From Candidatus Omnitrophota bacterium (GTDB taxonomy: Bacteria > Omnitrophota > Gorgyraeia > Zapsychrales > Zapsychraceae): a stretch of DNA of 64,000 bases. Of this stretch, positions 2,505 to 40,548 are shown in pieces. How positions within the stretch are numbered: position 1 is the first letter of the stretch; every line of letters begins with the position of its first letter. The stretch is taken from positions 8,026 through 72,025 of the forward strand of contig JADFYE010000009.1 of the NCBI GenBank assembly GCA_015233195.1. Direction: 5' to 3'. The notes beneath the pieces are model-generated. The model was not told the origin of the DNA and ran no database searches. It saw nothing but the letters and a program-made list of their open reading frames with translations. Position numbers and translations under genes: made by a program.

Positions 2505-2581
2505 CGGAGCGTAGCGCAGCTGGCTAGCGTACTAGTATGGGGTACTAGTGGTCGAGAGTTCGAATCTCTCCGCTCCGACCA
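2505..2581 (+). tRNA. tRNA-Pro (anticodon GGG), CCA encoded
   Basis: Cloverleaf folded by eye. Acceptor CGGAGCG/CGCTCCG; anticodon stem CTAGT/ACTAG with loop ATGGGGT (U33, GGG, G37); T-arm GAGAG-TTCGAAT-CTCTC; discriminator A plus CCA. Confidence 0.9.
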
Positions 2582-27365: not shown

Positions 27366-27833
27366 TTACTGTGCCAGCTCATTATTATTGTTGCGATAAT
27401 TCAAAATATTAGAACTAACCATCTTTTCCAAGGAATTGGAATTACCGGCAGGTAAATTTGCAGCTACCACATCTCTTTTCACAGCGACGGATTTATAAGA
27501 AACACGCGAAGGCTTAACCGCAAGATCTTTGCGGCGCACACCTACCTGAACATCGCCAATGCGAATACGTATAATCTTACCATTAACCAAAGCATCAGCC
27601 ACAATTTTACGGGCATTTCTTAAAATTCTGCCAAAACTTGGTCTGGAAATACCCATGGCTTTTGCGCCTTCATCCTGGTGATATCCTTGGAAATCAGCCA
27701 ATTTGAAAGCTTCGTATTCATCAACTTTTAATTCAACCTCGTCAGGCCGACCAGCTTTGCCGCGCGGGCTAAATTGCACAACTTTGGGCATGCGCTGAAT
27801 ATATCTGACTTTTTTTTGACGACCGCGTTTCAT
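27366..27833 (-). CDS. DUF134 (UPF0251) family putative DNA-binding protein
   Basis: 'MKRGRQKKVRYIQ..P..F.P.G' and 'EYEAFKLADFQGYHQDEGAKAMGISRPSFGRILRNARKIVADALVNGK' match the DUF134 pattern. Start placed at the internal ATG (27833), preceded by AAGGGGGG. The track ORF extends to 27896. Confidence 0.75.
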   Translation of the reverse strand: MKRGRQKKVRYIQRMPKVVQFSPRGKAGRPDEVELKVDEYEAFKLADFQGYHQDEGAKAMGISRPSFGRILRNARKIVADALVNGKIIRIRIGDVQVGVRRKDLAVKPSRVSYKSVAVKRDVVAANLPAGNSNSLEKMVSSNILNYRNNNNELAQ

Positions 27834-27871
27834 TTTTATTAAAGCCCCCCTTAAAAACCTTGATATTATTT

Positions 27872-27919
27872 TGAGCAAATGCTCATAAGAACCCAAACCT
27901 TATTTTGAGCATATGCTTA
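27872..27919 (-). promoter_or_regulatory. two related palindromic boxes (TGAGCAaaTGCTCA, TGAGCAtaTGCTtA) upstream of the DUF134 gene
   Basis: 27872-27885 and 27906-27919, each inside a ~25-bp direct repeat (TTATTTTGAGCAwATGCTyAT). The distal box abuts a minus-strand TATAAT (27919-27924). Confidence 0.35.
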
Positions 27920-27997: not shown

Positions 27998-28036
27998 AAA
28001 TTATAAAAATAAAGAGGGATGTCTCAGCATCCCTCT
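27998..28036 (-). terminator. intrinsic terminator after paralog 1
   Basis: Minus strand has stem AGAGGGAUG / CAUCCCUCU (28013-28021 / 28028-28036) followed by UUAUUUUUAUAAUUU. Confidence 0.65.
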
Positions 28037-28060
28037 CATCCCTCCCGAATCTTCCAGTAT

Positions 28061-30364
28061 TTATCGAATAAAAAATATTGATTTTGTCGGTGAAGCAGCT
28101 CCTTTACTATCAACCGCTTTTACCACCAACATATGAAAACCTTTGACAGTATACTGAGTAAACAACAATTTAGTATTAGCCGTTTCTACTGATTGACCAT
28201 TATCAATGCTATAAACATATTTGATCGGATCATTTTCCACATCAGTCGCAGACCAATAAACATATTGCCCAGAAACAGCCCCAGCAGAAGTTATTGTTGG
28301 AGCATTATCAATTTGGCAATTGCTGGTGGTACAAATTTGATTCGCTCCAACCCCTATAGTACCATCGCACTGCTCACTACCGCTTACGATCCCATCACCA
28401 CAAACTGATAATTGTACCAATTTACAACTTGAATCACATTTTTGATTGGCACCTACACCAGCTGAACCGTCGCACTGCTCCTTACCATTTTTTATGCCAT
28501 CCCCACAATACTCAGTGGTTTGACAACTAAGAAAATTGGTGCAAGTTGTCCCGCATTGCATTGTGCCAGCATATCCTGCAGTAGCAATACAAGACAACGA
28601 ATTACTATCACACACTTCCCCTGTTTCTATAACACCATTGCCGCAAACAGCACTCGGCGTCGTTCCTGCCCTCGCCAAAGCCGTCCACCATCCATTAGGC
28701 AGTTTCGCCTCATACACATCCACAGTGCCATCGCCGCCAAGCCAATCCGCCCCCCACCAAATTGACAAACCATCTTTGGAAATCGGAGCATATCCTTCTT
28801 TTATATAATTACCATCGTAATTGTTCCGCATATGCGCTATTTTCCATACCCGAGGATGATCCACATTATCTACCAACTCCAACATAAATACTTGATTTTG
28901 AAGACCAATATAATCCTGAGGATTGTTATAAGTTGAAACTGGTATCCACCCTTTTAAATTACGATTAATAACCCGACCAAAATGAAATCCAATCCTCCAA
29001 TTAGGATCCATATCGCCATGATAAATAACATTCATTTTATTACCATTCAAAACATTTGTAGCAGTGACCCAATCAGTACGGTCATCTTGGCAAACAAATA
29101 ACTCATTGCCATTAATATCAAAAGACCATCCTGAATGTGAAGATGAAACACAAACTTTAATTGGATTAATAAAACTAAGATCAAACGCGTACGCACCGTC
29201 GAAAACCGTGCCAGTATCCTGAGGTCTATTACCCCATTCATATGTTATTGTAATCATATTCGGATTAGAATTTGAATACGGTCTAACATATAATTTTGCC
29301 GCCGTGCTGCTGCTGCCCCTAAAATAATAATATTGACCAGGAGCAGTTAGCATTTGAGCAGGATTATCTATGTAGTCCGACGATCCCGAATATTTAATAT
29401 TTAATTGACCCGCTCTTTTTTCAAAAACTTCACCTATAGAATTACCGCTGGTATCTTCTGCAATATACCAAATATTCGCAGAATACTGAATCCAATTCGT
29501 AACATTACCATACCCACCCCAAGTGCGGTCAAAGTCTAATACAACTTTTTTCCCTGATGGAGCCATCTCAACCATATTTGGTTTTGGTATTGCATGATTA
29601 CCATTTGCGTCATAATAATCATATTTACCACCCAATCTAACATAATCAGAGACCATCAGACGCGATACAATTAAATCGGATTCCTTATCATAAACCATGA
29701 AACCCTGTATCGGATCTTGTCCATTTGTATATGGAAACGTCACCATCCACGCCCAATAGCGCGAATCCGCGGAGCCATCACCTTCAACATCCATAAATAT
29801 TTTTCCGCAATTAGTGTACTCTTTAGAAAAATCGTGGATCAATTGACTTTGTCCATTAGTTACGTCGTACTGCTTGAATTGACAACCATTAACAAAATAT
29901 AAACGATTAGGATATTTACCTGAATTATCCCATCGCATTTCACTGCTTTCCAAACTAGGAAATTCATTAACTAACTTATAGACTGTATTATCTGAGCGAT
30001 TATAAATAATCAACCTGTAATCAGTATTTTCACGGATCATAAAATATTTTGTTCCATCACTATTTTCATGTGGAAACCTGCTGTAAACTGCTCTAACATC
30101 ACCTGCTGTTCCCATATCCATAACTTGGCTTCCATCCTTACACAACGAAACCTTACCATAATGCGAATCCGAAAAACATTGATTCTTTTGCGGTTCACTG
30201 ATCTGATCTAAACCAGCAAATGTTATCGGAGTTCCTTTAGTATACGTCTCTACTGTAAAACCATTCGTAGTTTGTTGCGCAGCATCAGCATAAGAACTAA
30301 TTCCCCATGCTAAAAAAAGGGCAACACCAAAAGTGAACAATCTTGCTATAATGTTCGTGTTCAT
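28061..30364 (-). CDS. secreted protein, paralog 1: signal peptide, ~560-aa domain of unknown family, 3 cysteine-rich CGxG..CD repeats, C-terminal Ig/FN3-like domain
   Basis: Signal peptide 'FGVALFLAWGISSYADA'. Cys-rich modules at 28307-28645 (CGNGVIETGEVCD, CGDGIKNGKEQCDG.., CGDGIVSGSEQCDG..). High identity to 30779-33331. Confidence 0.9.
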   Translation of the reverse strand: MNTNIIARLFTFGVALFLAWGISSYADAAQQTTNGFTVETYTKGTPITFAGLDQISEPQKNQCFSDSHYGKVSLCKDGSQVMDMGTAGDVRAVYSRFPHENSDGTKYFMIRENTDYRLIIYNRSDNTVYKLVNEFPSLESSEMRWDNSGKYPNRLYFVNGCQFKQYDVTNGQSQLIHDFSKEYTNCGKIFMDVEGDGSADSRYWAWMVTFPYTNGQDPIQGFMVYDKESDLIVSRLMVSDYVRLGGKYDYYDANGNHAIPKPNMVEMAPSGKKVVLDFDRTWGGYGNVTNWIQYSANIWYIAEDTSGNSIGEVFEKRAGQLNIKYSGSSDYIDNPAQMLTAPGQYYYFRGSSSTAAKLYVRPYSNSNPNMITITYEWGNRPQDTGTVFDGAYAFDLSFINPIKVCVSSSHSGWSFDINGNELFVCQDDRTDWVTATNVLNGNKMNVIYHGDMDPNWRIGFHFGRVINRNLKGWIPVSTYNNPQDYIGLQNQVFMLELVDNVDHPRVWKIAHMRNNYDGNYIKEGYAPISKDGLSIWWGADWLGGDGTVDVYEAKLPNGWWTALARAGTTPSAVCGNGVIETGEVCDSNSLSCIATAGYAGTMQCGTTCTNFLSCQTTEYCGDGIKNGKEQCDGSAGVGANQKCDSSCKLVQLSVCGDGIVSGSEQCDGTIGVGANQICTTSNCQIDNAPTITSAGAVSGQYVYWSATDVENDPIKYVYSIDNGQSVETANTKLLFTQYTVKGFHMLVVKAVDSKGAASPTKSIFFIR

Positions 30365-30404
30365 GTCCCCATCCTTTTTTTTCGGGCTTTTTAAAAATTT
30401 TATA

Positions 30405-30452
30405 TAAAATAAAAAAAGCCCACATCCTATGCCTCAGGCACGGAATATGGGC
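30405..30452 (-). terminator. leader (attenuator) terminator in 5'UTR of paralog 1
   Basis: Minus strand: GCCCAUAUUCCGUGCC-UGAG-GCAUAGGAUGUGGGC followed by UUUUUUUAUUUU. About 50 nt upstream of the ATG. Confidence 0.6.
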
Positions 30453-30483
30453 TTTTATAATATTCGCCACCCAAATCTTAAAT

Positions 30484-30530
30484 ACGGCAACTGGCTATCC
30501 TTTTCATGGGACCCTATAGTTTTGCCGGTA
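30484..30530 (-). promoter_or_regulatory. degenerate c-di-GMP-I aptamer remnant (3' half only)
   Basis: Minus strand 'CCGGCAAAACUAUAGGGUCCCAUGAAAAGGAUAGCCAGUUGCCG' aligns with the 3' half of the intact aptamer at 33453-33526. It lacks the GNRA hairpin and the GGGGACGCAAAGC core. Confidence 0.5.
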
Positions 30531-30648
30531 CTCAAAAAATTAAATATTAATTCGAAAACATTTTGGTAAAAAACAGAACTGAAACTGAAGTATAAAATTT
30601 TGAAAGAAACTGAATAGAAAGCTTACGCCTGCTCAAGTAGAAGTCGGA

Positions 30649-30676
30649 ATAATATCATAGGGAGACACAATGTCAA
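30649..30676 (-). promoter_or_regulatory. sigma70-like promoter for paralog 1 (TTGACA-N16-TATTAT)
   Basis: Minus strand TTGACA (30676-30671), 16-nt spacer, TATTAT (30654-30649). Confidence 0.45.
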
Positions 30677-30715
30677 GAAATAATAAAAACAATTTTTCAT
30701 AGCTCCATAAATGTT

Positions 30716-30751
30716 GTGCTAATTAAAAGAGGGACGCCTCAGCATCCCTCT
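30716..30751 (-). terminator. intrinsic terminator after paralog 2
   Basis: Stem AGAGGGA / UCCCUCU (30728-30734 / 30745-30751) followed on the minus strand by UUUAAUU. Homologous to the terminator at 28013-28036. Confidence 0.5.
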
Positions 30752-30778
30752 CATCCCTCCCGAATCTACCGGTATCAC

Positions 30779-33331
30779 TTATCTTCTAAATGTAATTGTT
30801 TTTGAATTAGAAACAGCTCCTTTATTATCTATGGCTTTAACTGTTATTGTACGAACACCTTTTTTTGTAAATACTGCCATATATAATTTAGTAGCCGTAG
30901 TCGATACCCATTTAGCTCCATCTATACTATACAAATAAGTAATCGAATCCTTATCAGCATCTGTAGCTAACCAATAAATATATTGATTTTGAACCACCCC
31001 TAATGAAATCAGCACCGGCGCATGATTTACCACAACCTGCACCAATTGACAACTTGAATTACAAGTTTGATTAGCGCCTACACCTGCGGTACCATCGCAT
31101 TGTTCTGTTGATTGATTAACAACACTATCACCACAATACGGCAACTGTACCAATTGACAACTTGCATTACATGTTTGGTTAGCGCCTACACCAGCGGTGC
31201 CATCACATTGTTCTGTTGATTGATTAACAATACCATCACCGCAATATGACACATTAACTAACTGGCAGCTGGAATTACAAGTTTGATGAGTGCCTACACC
31301 GGCTGTTCCGTCGCATTGCTCAACACCATTTTTAATTCCATCACCGCAAAATTCTTTAGCTTGACAAGCAAGAAAACCTGTACAAACTGTACCACATTGC
31401 ATCGTCCCATTATATCCAGCAGAAGTTACACAAGTGGTCGAGTTTTGATCACATACTTCTCCAGTTTCTATGAGTCCATTACCGCAAACTGCAGCAACCG
31501 GAAGCATTGCTGTACAAGTCGCGTTACAATATCCTGCTTTTCCATTATTTGCACCACTATCACAAATTTCACTGCCTTCTTTTACTCCATTACCGCAAAC
31601 TGCAGCTGGTGGCGGAGGCGTAGTCACCGTGCCAGTTCTGGATAAAACATTCCACCATCCATAAGGTAATTTTGCTTCATATACATCAACTGTACCATCA
31701 CCGCCCATCCAATCCGCCCCCCACCAAATTGACATTCCGTCTTTTGAAATAGGAGCGTATCCTTCCTTCATATAATTACCGGCATAATTGTTACGCATAT
31801 GAGCTATTTTCCAAACCCGAGGATGATCAGCATTATCCACCAACTCCAACATAAATACTTGATTTTGTAACCCAATATAATCTTGAGTATAATTATAAGT
31901 TGAAACTGGAATCCATCCCTTTAAATCAGGATTTGTAACTCGACCGAAATGAAACCCGATCCTCCAGTTATAATCCATATCACCGTGATAAATAACGTTC
32001 ATTTTGTTACCGTTTAAAACATTAGTAGCAGTTATCCAATCTGTACGGTCATCTTGGCAAACAAATAATTCATTACCATTAATATCAAATGACCAACCAG
32101 AATGTGAAGATGAAACACAAACTTTTACCGGATTAATAAAAGTCGGATCAAAAGCATAAGCACCATCAAAAAGGGTGCCAGTATCCCGAGCTCTATCACC
32201 CCATTCATATACTAAAGATAAAGTGTTAGGATCAACCCCGGTCAGCGTCTTAACATATAATTTTTCTGAAACGCCATCTCCTCCACGGAAATGATAAAAC
32301 TGACCTAAAGTAGTTATCTTGGCTGTAGGATTATCCGTATAATCCGCCCAAACTTCACTATAATATGTTTTAGCGCCTGAACTATTTTCTTCATACACAT
32401 GACTGATCGAATTGCCATAAGTGTCAACCTGCACATACCAAATACCGCTTCCATAATATTGCCAATTAGCAGCATTTACATATCCCCCCCAGGTTCTGCT
32501 ATAATCCAACACAATTTTTTTACCAGAAGGAGCCATTTCTACCATATTAGGTTTTGGCATAGCAGCATTTCCATTTGCATCAAAGAAATCACATTTACCG
32601 CCTAACCTTTTATAATCATCAACATTTAATTTAGACACAATAATATCCGCATCTTTATCATAAACAATAAATTCACGGATCGCGCTCTGCTGCCCATCAT
32701 ACGGCCAAGTAACCATCCATCCCCAATAACGCGAATCAGCAGAACTATCTCCTTCAACGTCCATGAATATTTTTCCACAACCAGCATACTCATTTGAAAA
32801 ATCATGGATCAATTGACTTTGTCCATTCGTTATATCGTACTGTTTGAATTGACAACCTTCGACATAGTATAAACGATTCGGATATTTTCCTGAATAATCC
32901 CACCGCATCTCTATTCCTTCCAAGCTGGGAAATTCATTAACTATTTTATAAACCGTATTATCTGAACGGTTATAAATAATCAACCTATAATCAGTATTTT
33001 CACGGATCACAAAATATTTTGTTCCATCACTATTTTCATGTGGAAACCTGCTATAAACCGCTCTTATGTCCCCCTGTGTTCCCATATCCGTTACCTGACT
33101 ATCATCCTTACATAACTCCACGTTCCCATAATGTGAATCAGTAAAACATTCATTTTTTTGTGGCTCACTGATCTGATCCATACCAGCAAATGTTATTGGA
33201 GTTCCTTTAGTGTAAGTCTCTACTGTAAAACCATTCGTAGTTTGTTGTGCATAAGCATAAGAACCAATTCCCCATGCTAAAAAAAGGGCAACGCCAAAGG
33301 TGAACAATCTTGCTACAATGTTCGTGTTCAT
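30779..33331 (-). CDS. secreted protein, paralog 2: same architecture with 5 cysteine-rich repeats
   Basis: Start placed at 'MNTNIVARLF' (ATG 33331, SD-like GGAUGGGG upstream), matching paralog 1. The track ORF's extra 48 codons run through the leader terminator. Cys-rich modules at 31031-31597. Confidence 0.9.
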   Translation of the reverse strand: MNTNIVARLFTFGVALFLAWGIGSYAYAQQTTNGFTVETYTKGTPITFAGMDQISEPQKNECFTDSHYGNVELCKDDSQVTDMGTQGDIRAVYSRFPHENSDGTKYFVIRENTDYRLIIYNRSDNTVYKIVNEFPSLEGIEMRWDYSGKYPNRLYYVEGCQFKQYDITNGQSQLIHDFSNEYAGCGKIFMDVEGDSSADSRYWGWMVTWPYDGQQSAIREFIVYDKDADIIVSKLNVDDYKRLGGKCDFFDANGNAAMPKPNMVEMAPSGKKIVLDYSRTWGGYVNAANWQYYGSGIWYVQVDTYGNSISHVYEENSSGAKTYYSEVWADYTDNPTAKITTLGQFYHFRGGDGVSEKLYVKTLTGVDPNTLSLVYEWGDRARDTGTLFDGAYAFDPTFINPVKVCVSSSHSGWSFDINGNELFVCQDDRTDWITATNVLNGNKMNVIYHGDMDYNWRIGFHFGRVTNPDLKGWIPVSTYNYTQDYIGLQNQVFMLELVDNADHPRVWKIAHMRNNYAGNYMKEGYAPISKDGMSIWWGADWMGGDGTVDVYEAKLPYGWWNVLSRTGTVTTPPPPAAVCGNGVKEGSEICDSGANNGKAGYCNATCTAMLPVAAVCGNGLIETGEVCDQNSTTCVTSAGYNGTMQCGTVCTGFLACQAKEFCGDGIKNGVEQCDGTAGVGTHQTCNSSCQLVNVSYCGDGIVNQSTEQCDGTAGVGANQTCNASCQLVQLPYCGDSVVNQSTEQCDGTAGVGANQTCNSSCQLVQVVVNHAPVLISLGVVQNQYIYWLATDADKDSITYLYSIDGAKWVSTTATKLYMAVFTKKGVRTITVKAIDNKGAVSNSKTITFRR
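31031..31351 (-). repeat. in-frame tandem repeat (108+108+105 bp) encoding three CGDG..EQCDGTAGVG..C..SCQLV modules
   Basis: Units 31031-31138 and 31139-31246 encode near-identical 36-aa modules (YCGDSVVNQSTEQCDGTAGVGANQTCNSSCQLVQVV / YCGDGIVNQSTEQCDGTAGVGANQTCNASCQLVQLP). The third unit is 31247-31351. Confidence 0.85.
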
Positions 33332-33369: not shown

Positions 33370-33421
33370 CAAAAAATAAAAAAGGCCCAAATCCTATGCT
33401 CACAGGCACAGAATATGGACC
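33370..33421 (-). terminator. leader terminator (expression platform of the proximal riboswitch)
   Basis: Minus strand: GGUCCAUAUUCUGUGCC-UGUGA-GCAUAGGAUUUGGGCC, ~16 pairs with one mismatch, followed by UUUUUUAUUUUUU. Confidence 0.65.
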
Positions 33422-33452
33422 TTTGTAATATTCACTAATAAATTTTTGCACA

Positions 33453-33526
33453 CGGCAACTGGCTATCCTTTTCATAGGACCCTCTAGCTTTGCGTCCCCG
33501 CCTTACGACGGGTTTGCCTTTATCGT
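33453..33526 (-). promoter_or_regulatory. c-di-GMP-I (GEMM-I) riboswitch aptamer, proximal copy
   Basis: Minus-strand RNA is ACGAUAAAGGCAAACCCGUCGUAAGGCGGGGACGCAAAGCUAGAGGGUCCUAUGAAAAGGAUAGCCAGUUGCCG. It has the hallmark GGCAAACC, a GNRA (GUAA) hairpin, then GGGACGCAAAGC. Confidence 0.8.
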
Positions 33527-33537
33527 TTTATCAGACC

Positions 33538-33572
33538 GAAAAAAAGCTCATTCCGGATAATCAGAATGAGCT
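33538..33572 (-). terminator. intrinsic terminator between the two aptamers (expression platform of the distal riboswitch)
   Basis: Minus strand: AGCUCAUUC (33572-33564), 10-nt loop, GAAUGAGCU (33553-33545), a perfect 9-bp stem followed by UUUUUUC (the stem's last U extends this to a run of seven). Confidence 0.7.
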
Positions 33573-33596
33573 AAAATATTCTCGCTTCATCGATCT

Positions 33597-33720
33597 GATT
33601 CGGTAACCGGCTGTCCTGCCTTTCAGGACCCTTGGCTTTGCCTGTGAACCACTTAGATTCACAGCCCTGTACCCTACTGGTTCAGGGGTCCCCACCTTAC
33701 GATGGGTTTGCCTTTATCGT
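33597..33720 (-). promoter_or_regulatory. c-di-GMP-I-like riboswitch aptamer, distal copy, with 46-nt insertion in the core
   Basis: 5' part ACGAUAAAGGCAAACCCAUCGUAAGGUGGGGAC. 3' part GCAAAGCCAAGGGUCCUGAAAGGCAGGACAGCCGGUUACCGAAUC. The two parts are separated by two 23-nt hairpins (33642-33687). Confidence 0.7.
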
Positions 33721-33797
33721 CAAACACAACACAAACTTCTATTTCAAGTATAAACTAAACTAGCTCCAAAAAACAAGTACCCTATAATAAAAAATTT

Positions 33798-34691
33798 TTA
33801 CTTAATTACCGTCGGAGCAGCGTTCTTCACTGATTTTAATTGTTGAATCAACTTTTTAAATCCTTCAGCTATAGGACTTTTAGGATATTTTTCTACAAAT
33901 GCCTGATACACTGTAATTGCCGCATCATAATCTTTTAGTTCACGTACTGCAATTGCATTAATACGCTGAACTAAAGCCTGTATCTGCATCGGCAATAAAG
34001 CCCCTTTACTGCCATAATCCGAAAGTATCTTTCCATAATTTTGCAAAGCATCATTCCAACGGTTCTGAGCAAGATAACAATCAGACATCATATTCAATGC
34101 TGCTAATCCTGCCATCTTATCCGCGTAATCATTTGCAATTTTCTTATAAAAAGAAATAGCCTTATCATATGCTTCTACAGTTTTTTGAAAATCATTAGTC
34201 TTTTTATAATAATTTCCTATATACCCAGGCACTACCAAACCAGCTTTAGTTATCGGATATTCCTTATTAGTTCTTTCATAAAAACTCACAGCTTGTTCCC
34301 ATTTACCCGAAAGTTCATAAGTACGACCTATAGCAAATAAAGCTTCCGCGCACGTATCCGCACTTCCCTTATAAACATCGAGTATTTTTGTAAACTCTTC
34401 CCGAGCCAAATCATTCTGTTTTCGAATCAAATACAAATTACCTAAAGAAAAATAAACTTCCCTGATCAAAACATGTCCAGGATACTTTTCTATCATTTTT
34501 TTGTGAGCAAGGATAACCTTATCAATAGCATTTTCCGGTACAATTTGCGGATCCTTAGCAATATCAGCGTATTGCTTCTCCAAATTCCAGATTTCACGCT
34601 CTAAAGAATAATTTCCTTTGTAACCTAAAACTGCCAAAACTACAAAAATCACTACCAGAATAGCAACATAAAATTTAATAGTATTTTTCAT
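33798..34691 (-). CDS. TPR-repeat protein with N-terminal membrane anchor
   Basis: N-terminal TM (YVAILVVIFVVLAVLGY) followed by several 34-aa TPR-like repeats (..A...Y.KA...Y.....). Confidence 0.75.
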   Translation of the reverse strand: MKNTIKFYVAILVVIFVVLAVLGYKGNYSLEREIWNLEKQYADIAKDPQIVPENAIDKVILAHKKMIEKYPGHVLIREVYFSLGNLYLIRKQNDLAREEFTKILDVYKGSADTCAEALFAIGRTYELSGKWEQAVSFYERTNKEYPITKAGLVVPGYIGNYYKKTNDFQKTVEAYDKAISFYKKIANDYADKMAGLAALNMMSDCYLAQNRWNDALQNYGKILSDYGSKGALLPMQIQALVQRINAIAVRELKDYDAAITVYQAFVEKYPKSPIAEGFKKLIQQLKSVKNAAPTVIK

Positions 34692-34696
34692 ATTTA

Positions 34697-35563
34697 TTAT
34701 TCCTTATTTGAAAGAAAAAATTTAGTTAAAGCTGTATAAATAATAGCATCAATTATCCCAGTCATTATATAGCCTACCGCGATTATCCAAACCCGCATTT
34801 CCTGCGAAGTAACATTTGCTATTTCATTTATACTAGCCCGCATTACCAAAAATGGAATATAAAATATTGTAGGAATTAAAACAATCAATAAAACTTTTCC
34901 AAAATTTTTAAATAATAATTTAAAATTTGATATCAATGCCGAAAAAAGATTCTTTTTAGCTATGACTAAAAACGGCACAAAAAAAGCGAATAATGCTGTA
35001 GCAAAACATCCTAATAACAAATTAAAATAAGGCGCACCGTATATTATCACAGCTTTTAACATAAAAAACATTCCGCTGGTTGACTTAATCTTAAATGCCC
35101 TAGCCATTAATAAACTATAACTTTGGTTAAGAAATAAAAATACAACCAAAAATAAAATTGCAGCTACTAAAACATGAAAATATTTTGGTAAAGCAATTCT
35201 ACGAGCATGACCCAATTCAGCTTTTTGATTTTGAACTACTAAACTTAAAGCAACAGCAGAAACTGCCATAAGAAAATTACCCGCCAATAAAAAAAATGCT
35301 ACTTGTAACGGATAGATCATTTTAGGTAATAAAAATAAATTATTTGGATAGTGCAAAAAAACTACTCCCCATAATTTTTGAATAACTGGTCCCATAAAAT
35401 TTACCAATGGAAAACGGGTAGAAAAATAACAAAATTCTAATATTAATAATTCAAAAAATATAATAGTAATGAACGGAACTGAAACTGCAGGATTTTTAAG
35501 AAGCAGTGAAACCGCCTCTCCTAAAAGCGGAATTACTCCGTTTTTTTGAGATTGATTTTCCAT
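34697..35563 (-). CDS. polytopic membrane protein of unknown function
   Basis: About 7-8 hydrophobic segments. Sits within the EPS locus. Confidence 0.6.
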   Translation of the reverse strand: MENQSQKNGVIPLLGEAVSLLLKNPAVSVPFITIIFFELLILEFCYFSTRFPLVNFMGPVIQKLWGVVFLHYPNNLFLLPKMIYPLQVAFFLLAGNFLMAVSAVALSLVVQNQKAELGHARRIALPKYFHVLVAAILFLVVFLFLNQSYSLLMARAFKIKSTSGMFFMLKAVIIYGAPYFNLLLGCFATALFAFFVPFLVIAKKNLFSALISNFKLLFKNFGKVLLIVLIPTIFYIPFLVMRASINEIANVTSQEMRVWIIAVGYIMTGIIDAIIYTALTKFFLSNKE

Positions 35564-35645
35564 AATTACTCTCCCATTAATGGTTTAGAACATGAAGTAT
35601 AAAAACTGTTAGATAGTATCTCACTACTAAAACAAACTGTCAACC

Positions 35646-35680
35646 TGAAAAAAAAGGAGACAGATATTATCTGTCTCCTT
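35646..35680 (-). terminator. intrinsic terminator after the PEP-CTERM protein gene
   Basis: Minus strand: AAGGAGACAGAU / AUCUGUCUCCUU, a 12-bp stem (35654-35680), followed by UUUUUUUU. Confidence 0.65.
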
Positions 35681-35709
35681 AATACTAAATATGTAAAATA
35701 ATCTTAATA

Positions 35710-36225
35710 TTATACTTTTCTACGTAAACCAAAAAGTCCCACTAAACCACTGCCCATTAATAATAATGAAATCGGTTCAGGTACAACACTAGAAGCATTT
35801 GCATTTACAGTTAATGTAGAATCTTCAAACCAAAAATTACCCCAGGTTCTGGTAATCGTTACATTTAACAAACCATCATTTTGTAAATATGCCGCATTAA
35901 CTAAATAAGAATATGTCCCTGTATCAACTTCAAAATTTGCGACATCATTATTTCCATCAAAACTAATTGTTGCATTTTCAGTAGCAATCCAATCAAAACC
36001 CTGATCCCAAAAACGTATACTAATATTCGCTGATGTAATAGTATTTGTAGCTGGATTAAATCCATGATCCAAAATGTTATGTGTAAAGGTGTACGATGGA
36101 TTAAACATTGATAAAGCAACATCCGGCTCAGGATCAACCACATCAACAAAAGTTAATGCATGTGCTTGAGTCGCAATCAAAAGCCCTGCGCCAAACAATA
36201 TAACCATTAATAATAATTTCTTCAT
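35710..36225 (-). CDS. PEP-CTERM sorting-domain secreted protein
   Basis: Signal peptide. C-terminus 'VPEPISLLLMGSGLVGLFGLRRKV' is PEP motif + TM + basic cluster. Confidence 0.9.
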   Translation of the reverse strand: MKKLLLMVILFGAGLLIATQAHALTFVDVVDPEPDVALSMFNPSYTFTHNILDHGFNPATNTITSANISIRFWDQGFDWIATENATISFDGNNDVANFEVDTGTYSYLVNAAYLQNDGLLNVTITRTWGNFWFEDSTLTVNANASSVVPEPISLLLMGSGLVGLFGLRRKV

Positions 36226-36266
36226 TTCTTTCTCCTTTTTAATATTAATTTTTTTTAATTAAAATT

Positions 36267-37118
36267 TTAATGTGCGCCTTCGCCAGTTATTACTACTCTG
36301 AAGGTGCGTAACAAAATTTTTATATCCGTCCACAAACAAACCTTCTTAATATAGAGAAGATCATATTTTACTTTTTTACGAACATCGTCTTTAGTCTCAT
36401 CGTATTTATGCCATACCTGCGCCATACCAGTTAAACCCGGCTTAATATACAAACGTTTATAATAATCCGGGATTTCTTTTTTAAACTCTTCCACAAAAAC
36501 CGGACGTTCAGGACGCGGTCCGATCAAAGACATTTCCCCTTTTAAAATATTTACTAATTGCGGAAGTTCATCAATATGCGCTGTTCTCAAAAATTTTCCA
36601 AAAGGAATAATTCTATCATCATTCTGTGATGCCCAAACCGGACCAGTAGCCTTCTCAGCATTCGCTTTCATAGTGCGGAATTTATATATCTCAAAAAGTT
36701 CTCCGTCTTTACCTACCCGGGTTTGAGAATAAAATATTGGTCCCCGAGAAACTAATTTAATCAAAACTGCAGTAAATAAAAATAATGGTGACAAAATTAT
36801 AAAACCCAAGATAGACGCTAGAATATCAAATACACGTTTTGTAATATGATAAGTCCGACGAATGATCGAAACTATCATGCCTAAAACGCCAGTTCCAAAC
36901 AAAGCTAAAGTTGAAGGTTCAGGAGCGCGGGAACGATCTGCTACTGGTAAATGTTTAGTTATTTCCGCTTTATGATGGACTACAGATATTGTATGATCTT
37001 GTTTAGGATTTACAGAAGACAAGCCTGCTTTTGCAGAAACAGCAGCAAAGCTGATTGCAAAAAATAAAACTAAAATTGTAAAGAAACGTACAAATCTCAT
37101 ATTTTTCTTATTTCTCAT
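36267..37118 (-). CDS. priming sugar-phosphate transferase (bacterial sugar transferase family) with N-terminal signal peptide and embedded PEP-CTERM-like segment
   Basis: 'KRVFDILASILG..SPLF...IKL.SRGPIFYSQTRVG..G..F.IYKFRTM' core. Start uncertain: the track ORF reaches 37184, and M at 37118 gives a signal-peptide-like N-terminus. Confidence 0.85.
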   Translation of the reverse strand: MRNKKNMRFVRFFTILVLFFAISFAAVSAKAGLSSVNPKQDHTISVVHHKAEITKHLPVADRSRAPEPSTLALFGTGVLGMIVSIIRRTYHITKRVFDILASILGFIILSPLFLFTAVLIKLVSRGPIFYSQTRVGKDGELFEIYKFRTMKANAEKATGPVWASQNDDRIIPFGKFLRTAHIDELPQLVNILKGEMSLIGPRPERPVFVEEFKKEIPDYYKRLYIKPGLTGMAQVWHKYDETKDDVRKKVKYDLLYIKKVCLWTDIKILLRTFRVVITGEGAH

Positions 37119-37245
37119 TAAATTATCATTTTGTGTGAAAGTTAAAAATGTAATTAAATATAACATATTTAATGCGAAAATCAAGTAAACCTTTGGGACT
37201 ACCTTAGAAGACCAATAAATAGTTAAACCATTAAAAATAAAAGAC

Positions 37246-37878
37246 TTACGGCAAGTACTGCTTTATATGCGGAAATATATTTTTACCAAAATTTTTAATT
37301 CTTTCCACAGCTGCCTCATCAGGCTCCTCATTTTTAACTATAGTTGATATTCTTATTAACGCACTGCTTGATGGTTTTTTCAAAAATGATTTTACCGCTA
37401 TTAAAATTTGCTGCTGCCAATAATTAGGCGTAAACTGATCCCCTACCTTAAACCAATAACAGAAAAACTGAGTCTGTCCTGCACGTTCAGATTTCAATCT
37501 ATTAACATTTATCTGATACCTTCCCTCGCCTATCGTATCAATTTTAGAATCAGTTATAGTCGACCCTCCGCCGGTATAACAAATTTCAGGGGGATGTGAT
37601 ACTTTTCGATTATGCTGTGAATACACCATGAATAAAAAAACCTCATCACCAGCAGGATTAAAATATTTACGCACAAAAACATTATCCGTCTCGAGTATCG
37701 CCTTATCTTCTTTAGATACCGGAATCTCATCCGATTTCCATTCTCCAATTACCTTAGGAAACAAATTAATATCAACTGTATCCTTTTGAGCATAAGTAGC
37801 AAAATATATATTAAACGATAATACGCCAGCATAAATCAATCCCGCCAATATCAAAACAAAAGACCATTTAATTTTCAT
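37246..37878 (-). CDS. EpsI family exosortase-associated protein
   Basis: N-terminal TM. 'FPKVIGEWKS..' and 'SHPPEICYTGGG' patterns typical of EpsI. ATG at 37878 overlaps the exosortase stop (ATGA). Confidence 0.8.
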   Translation of the reverse strand: MKIKWSFVLILAGLIYAGVLSFNIYFATYAQKDTVDINLFPKVIGEWKSDEIPVSKEDKAILETDNVFVRKYFNPAGDEVFLFMVYSQHNRKVSHPPEICYTGGGSTITDSKIDTIGEGRYQINVNRLKSERAGQTQFFCYWFKVGDQFTPNYWQQQILIAVKSFLKKPSSSALIRISTIVKNEEPDEAAVERIKNFGKNIFPHIKQYLP

Positions 37879-38693
37879 TCTAATAACCTCCCTACTGCAT
37901 ATAACAATACAAAAGCAACTGCAAAAATAAAAAATCCTGACGCGTCGTGCACAAAACCTTTTGTATATTGTGAACCCCATATTTCAGCGACTGAAGATAA
38001 AAAAACCACCCGTATAACATTAGTAGCAACTGCAATTGGTATAGTCGATAAAAATATTACCCACTTTTTAAATCTAGTAGTAACCGTCATATAAGCAAAT
38101 ATTCCGCCCAACGCCAACAATGATATTAATGAACGCAATCCACTGCACACATCGTCTACCACTACATAAGCGTGACGCATATATATCATACTTCCTTCTC
38201 GTAACGCCGGAATACCAATATGGTTTAAAATATAAGCTGCAATTTTAGCTGCCAACATTTTCATGCGGAAACTTATATTTGTAATAATAACCAGCGGCAA
38301 CGGGAACATAAAAAGTAAAAAAACTATCGGCATCCAAATCTTACGCAAAATTTTCCATCCATAAAAATAAAGTATCAACCCGATCAAAACCGTGAACATG
38401 GAAAATCCACCGACAAAATAAACCCGGAATAACGAAGAAAAAATATAAATTAACAAACCTAATATAACAATTACCGTCCCCCAAAATGATGGAGCAGCCG
38501 GCATCTCTTTTAACTCATCTTTTTTCTGCCAGATAAGATACACAGACACAAATGGTATTAATATGCCGTGACTGTAATAAGAATCCCGAGAGAACCATCG
38601 ATCCCACATCCATAAAATTATAGGAACATAGGCGAGAATAAATAATACGAAAGCGATAAAAATCTGCCAGTTCTTTTTCATTAAATTATTCAT
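37875..38693 (-). CDS. exosortase (EpsH/Xrt family)
   Basis: 'W..RW...DSYYSHG.LIP' N-terminus. 8-TM layout. Catalytic-Cys region 'DDVCSGLRSL'. ATG at 38693 overlaps the GT2 stop. Confidence 0.88.
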   Translation of the reverse strand: MNNLMKKNWQIFIAFVLFILAYVPIILWMWDRWFSRDSYYSHGILIPFVSVYLIWQKKDELKEMPAAPSFWGTVIVILGLLIYIFSSLFRVYFVGGFSMFTVLIGLILYFYGWKILRKIWMPIVFLLFMFPLPLVIITNISFRMKMLAAKIAAYILNHIGIPALREGSMIYMRHAYVVVDDVCSGLRSLISLLALGGIFAYMTVTTRFKKWVIFLSTIPIAVATNVIRVVFLSSVAEIWGSQYTKGFVHDASGFFIFAVAFVLLYAVGRLLE

Positions 38694-39793
38694 GCCTTCG
38701 CCTTTTCCCAGGTTACTTGTTGCTGAGCAGTTAAAAAACGCCACAAACCCTCTAATGCGGCAAAATTTAAAACACAAAACATATACGAGACAGGGCAAAA
38801 AACCGCACTCCCATAAAACGCAATTTGACTCAATAAGATAAACAAATAAACCGGATCCCTCGTTACTAAAAAGATATTGAGGACAAATAAGAATATCATC
38901 AAAAACGGCATTTGCAACCGTAAAAATTTATGTGAAAAAAGTTGAATAGCTATCGGACTTTTTGCGGGGTTGAATAAAAATGGGAATAATGCGAATATCT
39001 GAAAATTACCTGCCAAAGTCCTTACTTTACGACGATGCTCCTCTTCAGGACTTTGCGCCACCTTGTCAAAAGCTTTAGCAGACACATCAAAGATCGCGCG
39101 ATAGCCTTGCTGAATTATGCAAAAAGGAATAAACATGTCGTCTAAAACTATATTTACAGGAAGACTCTTGAACAAACCTCTACGAATCGCATATATAGCT
39201 CCAGTAGCACCCATTATTGAATGGATCCGCCCCTCTTGAGCGCGTATAAATTTTTCATAGCTCCAGTATGCTCCCACACTTTCCGAAACTCCTCTGCCGT
39301 CACTTTCTAATATTAATTCGCCGCTTACACATCCAACTTTAGGATCAGCAAAATTTGCAACCAACTCCCTTATTACATCAATTTCAAAACGCTGGCGTGC
39401 GTCGCAAAACAGCACAATATCGTTCTTCGCCTCTTTTAACAAATCATTTAAAACTGACATTTTCCCCCTGCGTTCCCTATAATCAAAAAACTTCACCCGA
39501 TTATCTTTGAATTGATAGGATAGTTCTACAGTAGCATCATCTGAACCGTCTGAGCCAACTAATATTTCAAGTTTATCTTCTGGATAATCTAATGATAATA
39601 AGTTGGATAATTTTTCAGCAATATGCTTTTCTTCATTCCAAACTGACATGACAATTGAAACTGATGGACGCAAAGAATAATCTTTATGGACTATTTTATT
39701 TGAAAAGAGTGCCACTACCCACAAAATCGCCGGATACAAAAAATAACAATAAATTATTAAACCCAAACATAACCAAAATAAAAAAGTTAACAT
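38690..39793 (-). CDS. glycosyltransferase family 2 (membrane-associated)
   Basis: 'VSIVMSVWNEE', 'VGSDGSDD', 'CDARQ' GT-A motifs, with C-terminal TM segments. Confidence 0.85.
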   Translation of the reverse strand: MLTFLFWLCLGLIIYCYFLYPAILWVVALFSNKIVHKDYSLRPSVSIVMSVWNEEKHIAEKLSNLLSLDYPEDKLEILVGSDGSDDATVELSYQFKDNRVKFFDYRERRGKMSVLNDLLKEAKNDIVLFCDARQRFEIDVIRELVANFADPKVGCVSGELILESDGRGVSESVGAYWSYEKFIRAQEGRIHSIMGATGAIYAIRRGLFKSLPVNIVLDDMFIPFCIIQQGYRAIFDVSAKAFDKVAQSPEEEHRRKVRTLAGNFQIFALFPFLFNPAKSPIAIQLFSHKFLRLQMPFLMIFLFVLNIFLVTRDPVYLFILLSQIAFYGSAVFCPVSYMFCVLNFAALEGLWRFLTAQQQVTWEKAKA

Positions 39794-39798
39794 AAAAT

Positions 39799-40548
39799 TT
39801 ATCTTTTCTTTAAAATCATTCCTCTAATTTTATCATATCCTCTATCTCCAAAAACTCTCCTCACCAGCGTCTTTATCATAGTAAATAACTTCATTTTAAA
39901 ACCGATCTTCCCGGTAACTGCCATGACAAAATCTTCTATAGTCCAAACGCCCTTAACTGCAATGCGCTCAAAACAACCTTCGCTAAACCCAACCCGTTTA
40001 TCTGAAACAAAAATTTGTTTATATCCAGCTTTCTTTGCTGCAGCAATCACTTTATCGTCATAAAATCCCCTGGGAATAGATATTGAATCAATAGAACAGC
40101 GTAATTTACTTTCAAGCATAAATTTTGATTTGGTTAATTCTTCAAATAAAACTTCTGTAGATAATCCAGTTAATATCTTATGTGTAAGACCATGCGAACC
40201 AATATTAAAACCAACCATTCTCATAACCGCCAAATCTTCCCATGACAAATAACCATCGCGACCAATCCTATCAACTATTACAAAAAAGTATGCGGATGCT
40301 TTTATTTCTTTTAAAAACGGCACTACTAATTCAAAATTGTTTTTCTCTCCGTCATCAAACGTTAAAACAATATTTTTATTATCCGCGTTTAAATTTACAG
40401 TAAAACGATACGAGTTATGTTGCAACCAATTCAAATGTTCTTTAAACGCGTCAATTTTAACATCATATAAATCAGCGCCTCTCTCCCGATCAACAAAGCC
40501 AGAACCCATTTCAGGAACTATACCGTGGTACATTAAAATTTTAGACAT
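39799..40548 (-). CDS. polysaccharide deacetylase (CE4/NodB family)
   Basis: 'LTFDDGEKNN' and 'GSHGLTH' NodB motifs. Confidence 0.85.
   Translation of the reverse strand: MSKILMYHGIVPEMGSGFVDRERGADLYDVKIDAFKEHLNWLQHNSYRFTVNLNADNKNIVLTFDDGEKNNFELVVPFLKEIKASAYFFVIVDRIGRDGYLSWEDLAVMRMVGFNIGSHGLTHKILTGLSTEVLFEELTKSKFMLESKLRCSIDSISIPRGFYDDKVIAAAKKAGYKQIFVSDKRVGFSEGCFERIAVKGVWTIEDFVMAVTGKIGFKMKLFTMIKTLVRRVFGDRGYDKIRGMILKKR

Follow-up and report, generated by a model that had tools for sequence, protein, structure and literature searches.

In a 64-kb window of DNA (the whole stretch analyzed here) from one metagenome-assembled genome (MAG) of Candidatus Omnitrophica, the leader of a secreted-protein gene, paralog 1, probably copies, minus the sensor, the proximal c-di-GMP-I riboswitch that precedes its neighbor, paralog 2. 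The explanation that we favor, by a modest leaning of the evidence that covers structure, origin and behavior jointly, is that the copy arose with a duplicated or gene-converted tract ending inside the aptamer, and that the leader would carry out ligand-independent attenuation behind a separate promoter, with some read-through.

The two genes lie on a common strand, separated by a gap of 414 nt, and encode proteins that are 66% identical. Both products have a signal peptide, a beta-propeller at the N-terminus and Cys-rich acidic repeats (TIGR02232) at the C-terminus. The structure model of paralog 1 has a pLDDT of ~85 across residues 32–565, with the oligogalacturonate lyase 3c5m as its top PDB match. 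A cluster of exosortase, PEP-CTERM, glycosyltransferase and polysaccharide deacetylase genes lies upstream of the paralogs on their strand, and control by c-di-GMP plausibly fits this exosortase/EPS setting. Downstream of the paralogs is a DUF134 gene (27366–27896), whose product resembles a sigma-70 region-4 HTH DNA binder. Relatives of the pair are distant in all collections searched: a scan of genome contigs returned only relatives at 31–33% identity, a protein-pattern scan of metagenomes returned no close relative, and a search of 5.8 billion proteins recovered only paralogs 1 and 2 above 48% identity. An exact 21-mer taken from the 3' half of the aptamer had no match in the collections searched. 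No riboswitch was found at six loci encoding distant homologues (30–48% identity), indicating that the riboswitch association is lineage-specific.

The leader of paralog 2 contains two c-di-GMP-I riboswitch units in series, each composed of an aptamer and a terminator. For the proximal aptamer (unit B), RF03167 is the best model within clan CL00126, and the single same-clan overlap hidden at the gathering threshold is presumably RF01051. Where the consensus lines of RF03167 and RF01051 differ (GCGAA versus GCAAA), at what is presumably the variant-defining column, unit B carries the A that we take to be canonical. The distal unit A begins with an aptamer-like element (33721–33598), ~70 nt upstream of the unit B aptamer, that scores a sub-threshold 32.5 bits in Rfam and has 46 nt inserted where P2 meets GCAAAG; its terminator lies at 33572–33539 and the unit folds with z=−5.3. 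Paralog 2 is predicted from these elements to be gated twice by c-di-GMP, via tandem riboswitches.

A first-pass annotation of this DNA had proposed that similarity between the two duplicated units extends from the coding region through the SD and the leader terminator to the 3' half of the aptamer, and alignment of the minus-strand sequences bears this out. In pairwise alignments, near-identity starts at GCAAA (30525 in paralog 1, 33494 in paralog 2) and extends across the hairpin of the leader, the SD and the ATG into the 5' coding sequence; at 30526–30512 paralog 1 reads GGCAAAACTATAGGG, the paralog 2 counterpart being GGCAAACCCGTCGTAAGGCGGGGACGCAAAGCTAGAGGG. The same alignments agree with the earlier proposal that upstream homology stops at this point, as no similarity to the paralog 2 leader is detected upstream of G30526 and the adjoining 9 nt match at two of nine positions. 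A shared 16-mer, GGATAGCCAGTTGCCG, is present in exactly two copies in the window, together with one copy with three mismatches in the distal aptamer (0.22 expected).

Within the remnant, the segment from GCAAA to GCCGT (30525–30484 against 33494–33453) is identical at 41/44 positions (93%), the three substitutions being a G.U to A-U change in P3, one bulge position and one loop position. P3 is kept, as is the UGCCG of the 3' junction, which contains the C92 equivalent, and the substitutions maintain pairing. Missing from the leader are the 5' strand of P1 and the entire P2 hairpin, whose GNRA tetraloop docks on the second hairpin in c-di-GMP-I aptamers, along with the AAAGGCAAAC core (G20 context) and the second GC that would close P2. 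The earlier view that both the GNRA hairpin and the ligand-binding core had been removed is thus correct for the hairpin and only partly so for the core, since counterparts of A47 (in GCAAA) and of C92 (in UGCCG) remain.

Comparison of the paralog 1 leader with Rfam gave a sole match, to RF01051 at 30542–30483, which reaches 21.5 bits where the family's gathering score is 35 (E=0.53 in a 4.2-kb search, 0.053 in a 416-nt search), in keeping with the expectation of a partial match or none. In this match, the first hairpin shrinks from 21 model positions to 3 nt, and the sequence there is GGCAAAACUAUAGGG. Local and glocal Rfam scans of the leader returned nothing above 21.5 bits and no other RNA family. 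No intact aptamer was found by Rfam in 30365–30780; the nearest lies 2.9 kb upstream in the other transcription unit. The leader contains no plausible leader peptide, and its fold as a whole has z=−1.39. Lacking the 5' strand of P1 and the P2 GNRA hairpin, the RNA should be unable to assemble the three-helix aptamer and hence to read c-di-GMP. Direct sensing by the paralog 1 leader is very unlikely on the basis of the defined architecture of the aptamer, and the uncoupling from c-di-GMP suggested by the first-pass annotation agrees with both this architecture and the failure against the Rfam model. The coordinates of the genes and of the leader elements are collected in Table 1.

Table 1. Features of the two paralogs, their leaders and the spacer between them (window coordinates)
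Feature	Position	Strand	Description
Paralog 1 CDS (HQL25_04595)	28061..30364	minus	767 aa, secreted
SD/ATG block of paralog 1, 52 nt	30350..30401	minus	identical in both paralogs; SD AAGGATGGGG, ATG at 30364, first codons
Leader intrinsic terminator, paralog 1	30411..30456	minus	14+5 bp hairpin, core 30452–30418, then U7 30417–30411
GAATATTA motif	30458..30465	minus	8/8 identical to paralog 2
Diverged 18-nt linker	30466..30483	minus	~44% identity to paralog 2
Aptamer remnant	30484..30526	minus	G + GCAAA junction, P3 hairpin, 3' junction / P1 3' strand (GCCGT)
U-rich 5' part of paralog 1 leader	30527..30642	minus	unique, without homology to paralog 2 leader
Predicted sigma-70-type promoter of paralog 1	30649..30676	minus	TTGACA-16-TATTAT, 11/12
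3' terminator of paralog 2	30725..30751	minus	−18.5 kcal/mol hairpin, then UUUUAAUU
Paralog 2 CDS (HQL25_04600)	30779..33331	minus	850 aa, secreted
Unit B terminator of paralog 2	33378..33424	minus	−24.2 kcal/mol; homologous to paralog 1 leader terminator
Unit B aptamer of paralog 2 (proximal, c-di-GMP-I)	33450..33527	minus	Rfam 72.2 bits over the full model (1-80/80)
Unit A of paralog 2 (distal)	33539..33721	minus	aptamer-like element + own terminator

Judged from the aligned sequences, the homology boundary at GCAAA is most likely the end of a duplicated or gene-converted tract and not the scar of a clean internal deletion. Both limits of the duplicated unit are sharp, one at GCAAA within the aptamer and the other at a 42-nt block past the stop codon. 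Loss of ~25 nt between two GCAAA repeats had been proposed earlier; such a deletion is possible, but the alignments lend it hardly any support. The GCAAA of paralog 1 aligns with the second GCAAA of paralog 2 whether or not a deletion is assumed, and a 24-nt deletion model gains only one matching base (G30526). A pure internal deletion would have kept the 5' strand of P1 and the upstream flank, and the absence of both argues against a simple deletion. A single breakpoint at GCAAA would be at least as parsimonious as a deletion; a deletion accompanied by another rearrangement would fit the data as well as a duplicated or converted tract ending there.

Along the coding alignment, third-position identity in identical codons varies from 0.21 to 0.90. 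Silent-site identity in the first 60 codons (0.83) exceeds that of the remainder (0.58; P=3e-4), and a chi-square test shows identity to be heterogeneous along the genes (P=5e-5). This mosaicism suggests either patchy gene conversion or selection at the 5' end of the mRNA; it is consistent with gene conversion having homogenized the leader and the 5' coding sequence as far as a limit within the aptamer. The persistence of a P3 remnant conserved at 93% beside a linker conserved at ~44% hints at selection on the remnant or, again, at patchy conversion.

The near-consensus promoter TTGACA-N16-TATTAT that had been noted at 30676–30649 is indeed present, with 11 of 12 consensus positions matched: the −35 element occupies 30676–30671 and the −10 element 30654–30649, and the 16-nt spacer, within the 16–18 nt range of sigma-70-type promoters, carries an extended −10 TG. 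Two matches of at least 11/12 occur in the window, this site being the only one with TG, and 0.18 sites of 11/12 with TG are expected per window in Markov shuffles; promoters were scored against the consensus and terminators by thermodynamics, the host Omnitrophica being uncharacterized. The predicted promoter lies ~40 nt past paralog 2's own 3' terminator, inside a unique 198-nt spacer whose sole match in the rest of the window is the 42-nt block that contains this terminator. That block follows the stop codons of both genes and is 95% identical between the copies (30767–30726 versus 28052–28011). The 3' terminator is predicted to separate the two transcription units.

The terminator hairpin and U7 tract recognized earlier in the paralog 1 5' UTR (30456–30411) are present. 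The hairpin has a calculated stability of −26.4 kcal/mol, against −24.2 for that of unit B, and the U7 tract ends 47 nt ahead of the ATG; as in the sequence definition of a 5'-UTR intrinsic terminator, a stable hairpin and a U-tract are found between promoter and start codon. A simple terminator scan overlooked the element owing to one internal mismatch. The terminators of paralogs 1 and 2 are ~85–90% identical, and their differences are mostly pair-preserving (U.G to C-G, and one G-C/A-U double change). The GAATATT motif preceding the terminator is conserved in all three expression platforms in an alignment of units A, B and C, and is complementary to ATATTC of the terminator 5' strand; its conservation suggests an antiterminator seed.

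All MFE and centroid folds computed for the paralog 1 leader contain the terminator together with an independent hairpin formed by the remnant, and the terminator of unit B is likewise present in every equilibrium fold computed for paralog 2. The remnant hairpin in these folds comprises P3, the GGCA/UGCC pairing that closes it and a further closing helix between flank and linker, a non-native closure in which the linker supplies GUAUUUAAGA to pair with the 5' flank UUUUGAGUAC. The idea that this closing helix had evolved through co-variation of flank and linker was rejected as unsupported, since its duplex and hairpin energies do not surpass those of random genomic 25-mers (p ~0.24). When the 3' strand of the terminator is blocked, the best structure of the paralog 1 leader is 21 kcal/mol worse. 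In snapshots that precede synthesis of the complete terminator, the linker sequence GGGUGGC, next to GAAUAU, pairs with the terminator 5' strand over 5+6 bp (GGGUG..GAAUAU with AUAUUC..UGCCU, ~−6.4 kcal/mol), while in paralog 2 AGGCA of the ligand-binding core pairs with UGCCU and GAAUAU with AUAUUC (~−7.6 kcal/mol); these fold energies describe equilibrium, and the termination decision is kinetically controlled and lies beyond thermodynamics. The similar size of the paralog 1 antiterminator and of the inferred apo-state antiterminator of paralog 2 is an observation that counts against attenuation as the best explanation.

The data presented above have led us to propose a model for the paralog 1 leader in which transcription starts at the dedicated sigma-70-type promoter, with a start site placed from the sequence near 30642, to yield a 5' UTR of ~278 nt. 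Because folding reveals no strong competitor in this UTR for a terminator of −26 kcal/mol, termination at U7 (~30411) is predicted for most transcripts, giving an RNA of ~230 nt. A ligand-independent fraction would read past the terminator and express paralog 1, the level of which would be fixed and attenuated as the product of promoter strength and read-through, with paralog 2 gated twice by c-di-GMP. Ligand-independent termination is favored over a constitutive antiterminator because the terminator is far more stable. The intact 767-aa ORF speaks for expression of paralog 1, which makes a highly efficient constitutive terminator hard to explain if mRNA comes neither from read-through nor from upstream transcription.

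Among the alternatives, a leader locked in the ON state is unlikely, though it deserves serious weight. Here, a local antiterminator supplied by the linker (GGGUG-GC-GAAUAU / AUAUUC-CG-UGCCU) would largely bypass the terminator and allow constitutive expression from the strong-looking promoter, the local pairing having replaced the long-range AGGCA:UGCCU and GAAUAU:AUAUUC pairing that in paralog 2 would form only when the aptamer is unliganded. The snapshots give both leaders pairings of this kind with similar gains (−6.4 and −7.6 kcal/mol), GAATATT is kept in all three units, the linker is the sole strongly diverged segment and the paralog 1 ORF is intact. However, the alternative helix is weak, with G.U in three of its five arm pairs and a 2x2 internal loop, and is ~20 kcal/mol less stable than the terminator able to displace it; helices of this size are common by chance in AU-rich sequence, as the p of ~0.24 for the comparable flank helix illustrates. 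We find it improbable that paralog 1 is instead under indirect c-di-GMP control, being transcribed mainly by read-through from paralog 2, with its own terminator as a fixed second gate and the predicted promoter unused or weak. The shared strand and the 414 nt between the genes would permit this, and the U-tract of paralog 2's 3' terminator is short and interrupted (UUUUAAUU), but a −18.5 kcal/mol terminator stands between the genes and the best promoter match of the 64-kb window sits in the spacer in the correct orientation.

A role for the remnant itself can also be considered. It is decidedly unlikely, as we see it, that P3, GAAUAUU and the terminator were exapted, through loss of the sensor half, as a ligand-independent or factor-dependent attenuator or as a riboswitch-derived small RNA of ~230 nt; were this the case, a matrix-associated secreted protein would be expressed under c-di-GMP gating from one paralog and independently of c-di-GMP from the other. 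The narrower proposal that these elements bind a trans-acting protein or RNA, so that the remnant is under selection and is no relic, strikes us as quite improbable. It draws on the retention of the P3 remnant (41/44, with all three changes structure-neutral) beside a ~44% linker, on the mostly pair-preserving differences in the terminator and on the glycine 'ghost aptamer', a general precedent for a non-binding remnant with a structural role (PMC9481103). Against it, three neutral substitutions fall short of significance (P of roughly 0.2), recent gene conversion explains the high identity equally well, and the remnant is known from one genome, with no close relative in the collections searched. 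No candidate factor emerged either: the neighboring DUF134 protein, put forward in the first-pass annotation, resembles a sigma-70 region-4 protein with a DNA-binding HTH and finds no support as an RNA-level regulator, and the gene/Pfam tables obtained for four homologue loci list no DUF134 gene. We attach very little probability to the remaining pair of explanations, namely non-canonical ligand sensing, with an upstream AGGC-GUAA-GCUU hairpin (30630–30619) acting as a displaced P2, or a truncated junction produced as an artefact of MAG assembly. A 4-bp GNRA hairpin is present 93 nt upstream, and the distal aptamer of paralog 2 tolerates its 46-nt insert at the equivalent junction; yet a hairpin of this size is expected by chance, the AAAGGCAAAC core and the second GC closing P2 are absent and Rfam scores do not exceed 21.5 bits. 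The GUAA hairpin was rejected as a displaced P2 on account of its chance size and the absent core sequence. Repeats can be mis-joined in MAG assemblies, but only 5–6 nt are shared at the junction and the long identical blocks lie ~100 nt downstream; since the junction is outside any long exact repeat, a k-mer mis-join there is unlikely.

If ligand-independent attenuation by a sensor-less copy is correct, the locus offers a natural example of a riboswitch-controlled gene escaping second-messenger control after duplication, in which the sensor half was lost, the expression platform (terminator and RBS) was kept and a new promoter was recruited. Tandem c-di-GMP riboswitches would then impose digital gating on one copy, with expression of the other fixed or attenuated. 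The paralog 1 leader may thereby serve as a natural 'aptamer-deletion' control for the switching logic of its sister riboswitch.

The closest known system is the c-di-GMP-I riboswitch (GEMM-I, RF01051 / CL00126). The P3 hairpin, the GCAAA and UGCCG junctions, the linker motif, the terminator and the RBS of paralog 1 are homologous to those of the intact unit, and the controlled gene is of a similar type, encoding a secreted or surface protein beside an EPS/exosortase locus. Unlike members of that family, the paralog 1 leader is without the 5' strand of P1 and the P2 GNRA hairpin and scores 21.5 bits against 35; it therefore cannot be classed with the family, and it is predicted from its sequence not to bind c-di-GMP. 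Tandem c-di-GMP-I riboswitches, for which 347 doublets and 12 triplets have been reported, are a common 'pseudo-cooperative' architecture (PMC9481103), of which Bc3-5 of Bacillus thuringiensis is an example (PMC9481103; PMC4759541). Paralog 2 resembles these in having two aptamer-plus-terminator units in series, whereas the paralog 1 leader stands outside the array, in a separate transcription unit with its own promoter and no intact aptamer.

In singlet glycine riboswitches, the 'ghost aptamer' is a partial remnant that adjoins an intact aptamer and supports its folding (PMC9481103). The paralog 1 remnant is similar in being a partial aptamer kept after the predicted loss of ligand binding, and differs in having no intact aptamer partner, any role of the remnant being putative. 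The general layout of promoter, structured leader, strong hairpin with U-tract and gene is that of constitutive 5'-UTR intrinsic terminators and attenuators. Riboswitch-derived terminated leader RNAs are also known, such as SreA and SreB of Listeria, and the ~230-nt RNA predicted here would be comparable to them; in contrast to such systems, the paralog 1 leader offers only a weak candidate for an alternative structure and no evident leader peptide or ligand sensor. Taken against these systems, the case is one of tidy, fairly ordinary regulatory decay after gene duplication, with no new mechanism, and the paralog 1 leader is best described, as far as its sequence indicates, as a riboswitch expression platform of known type that duplication or gene conversion has left without a sensor.

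The sub-threshold Rfam score of the distal aptamer of paralog 2 (unit A) results from an insert located between GGGGAC, the 3' strand of the GNRA-capped first aptamer hairpin (P2), and GCAAAG. Folding of the whole unit is far better than that of shuffled sequences (z = −5.3), and P2 of the distal aptamer differs from that of the proximal aptamer (unit B) by a compensatory A-U/G-C pair. The distal element may be a functional c-di-GMP-I aptamer carrying an extra junction domain. The insert occupies the same junction at which homology with paralog 1 breaks off.

Features of the paralog leaders, 3' regions and surrounding window
Feature	Position	Strand	Remarks
Paralog 2 distal aptamer	33599-33721	−	Rfam 32.5 bits, below threshold
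Insert in paralog 2 distal aptamer	33642-33687	−	46 nt, two small hairpins
GAATATT	30458-30464; 33426-33432; about 33580-33586	−	one per unit, in the aptamer-terminator interval
GUAA-tetraloop hairpin (AGGC-GUAA-GCUU)	30619-30630	−	4 bp; unique 5' part of paralog 1 leader
TTCAGTTTC-like direct repeats	about 30570-30612	−	unique 5' part of paralog 1 leader
Block over stop codon and 3' terminator	30726-30767 (paralog 2); 28011-28052 (paralog 1)	−	42 nt, 95% identical
Exosortase/EPS locus	33798-40548	−	upstream of paralog 2, same strand
tRNA gene	2505-2578	+	58.7 bits; unrelated to the paralog 1 leader finding

The motif GAATATT is present in all three units, including the paralog 1 leader platform (unit C), though the terminator of unit A differs in sequence. 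In each unit it is complementary to part of the terminator 5' strand and is therefore a candidate for a shared antiterminator seed. The hairpin and direct repeats in the unique 5' part of the paralog 1 leader are both probably due to chance.

Alignment of the two paralogs by codon (28061-33331, minus strand) revealed a mosaic of silent-site identity: 30-codon blocks vary between 0.21 and 0.90, and 20 consecutive third positions are all identical within codons 95-115. This pattern indicates repeated gene conversion between the tandem secreted-protein genes. The C-terminal coding regions adjoining the near-identical 3' blocks share only 37-57% protein identity, and selection on terminators does not normally keep sequence to such a degree over 42 nt. 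The conservation of these blocks suggests either gene conversion or an additional function for GATTCGGGAGGGATGAGAGGGATG.

The exosortase/EPS locus encodes a TPR protein, two PEP-CTERM proteins, a bacterial sugar transferase, a DUF3485 (EpsI-like) protein, exosortase EpsH, a GT2 glycosyltransferase and a polysaccharide deacetylase. In the interval separating the tandem riboswitch from the TPR gene, a search for a strong promoter found none; therefore, paralog 2 may be the distal, riboswitch-gated gene of an exosortase/EPS operon. The paralog 1 protein family lacks any Pfam domain. The N-terminal part of paralog 1 (28061-30364, minus strand; residues 32-565) was modelled as a beta-propeller, the top PDB match being oligogalacturonate lyase (3c5m; TM 0.64, normalised to target). 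Taken with the EPS context, these results hint that the secreted protein is either a polysaccharide-active enzyme or a matrix component.
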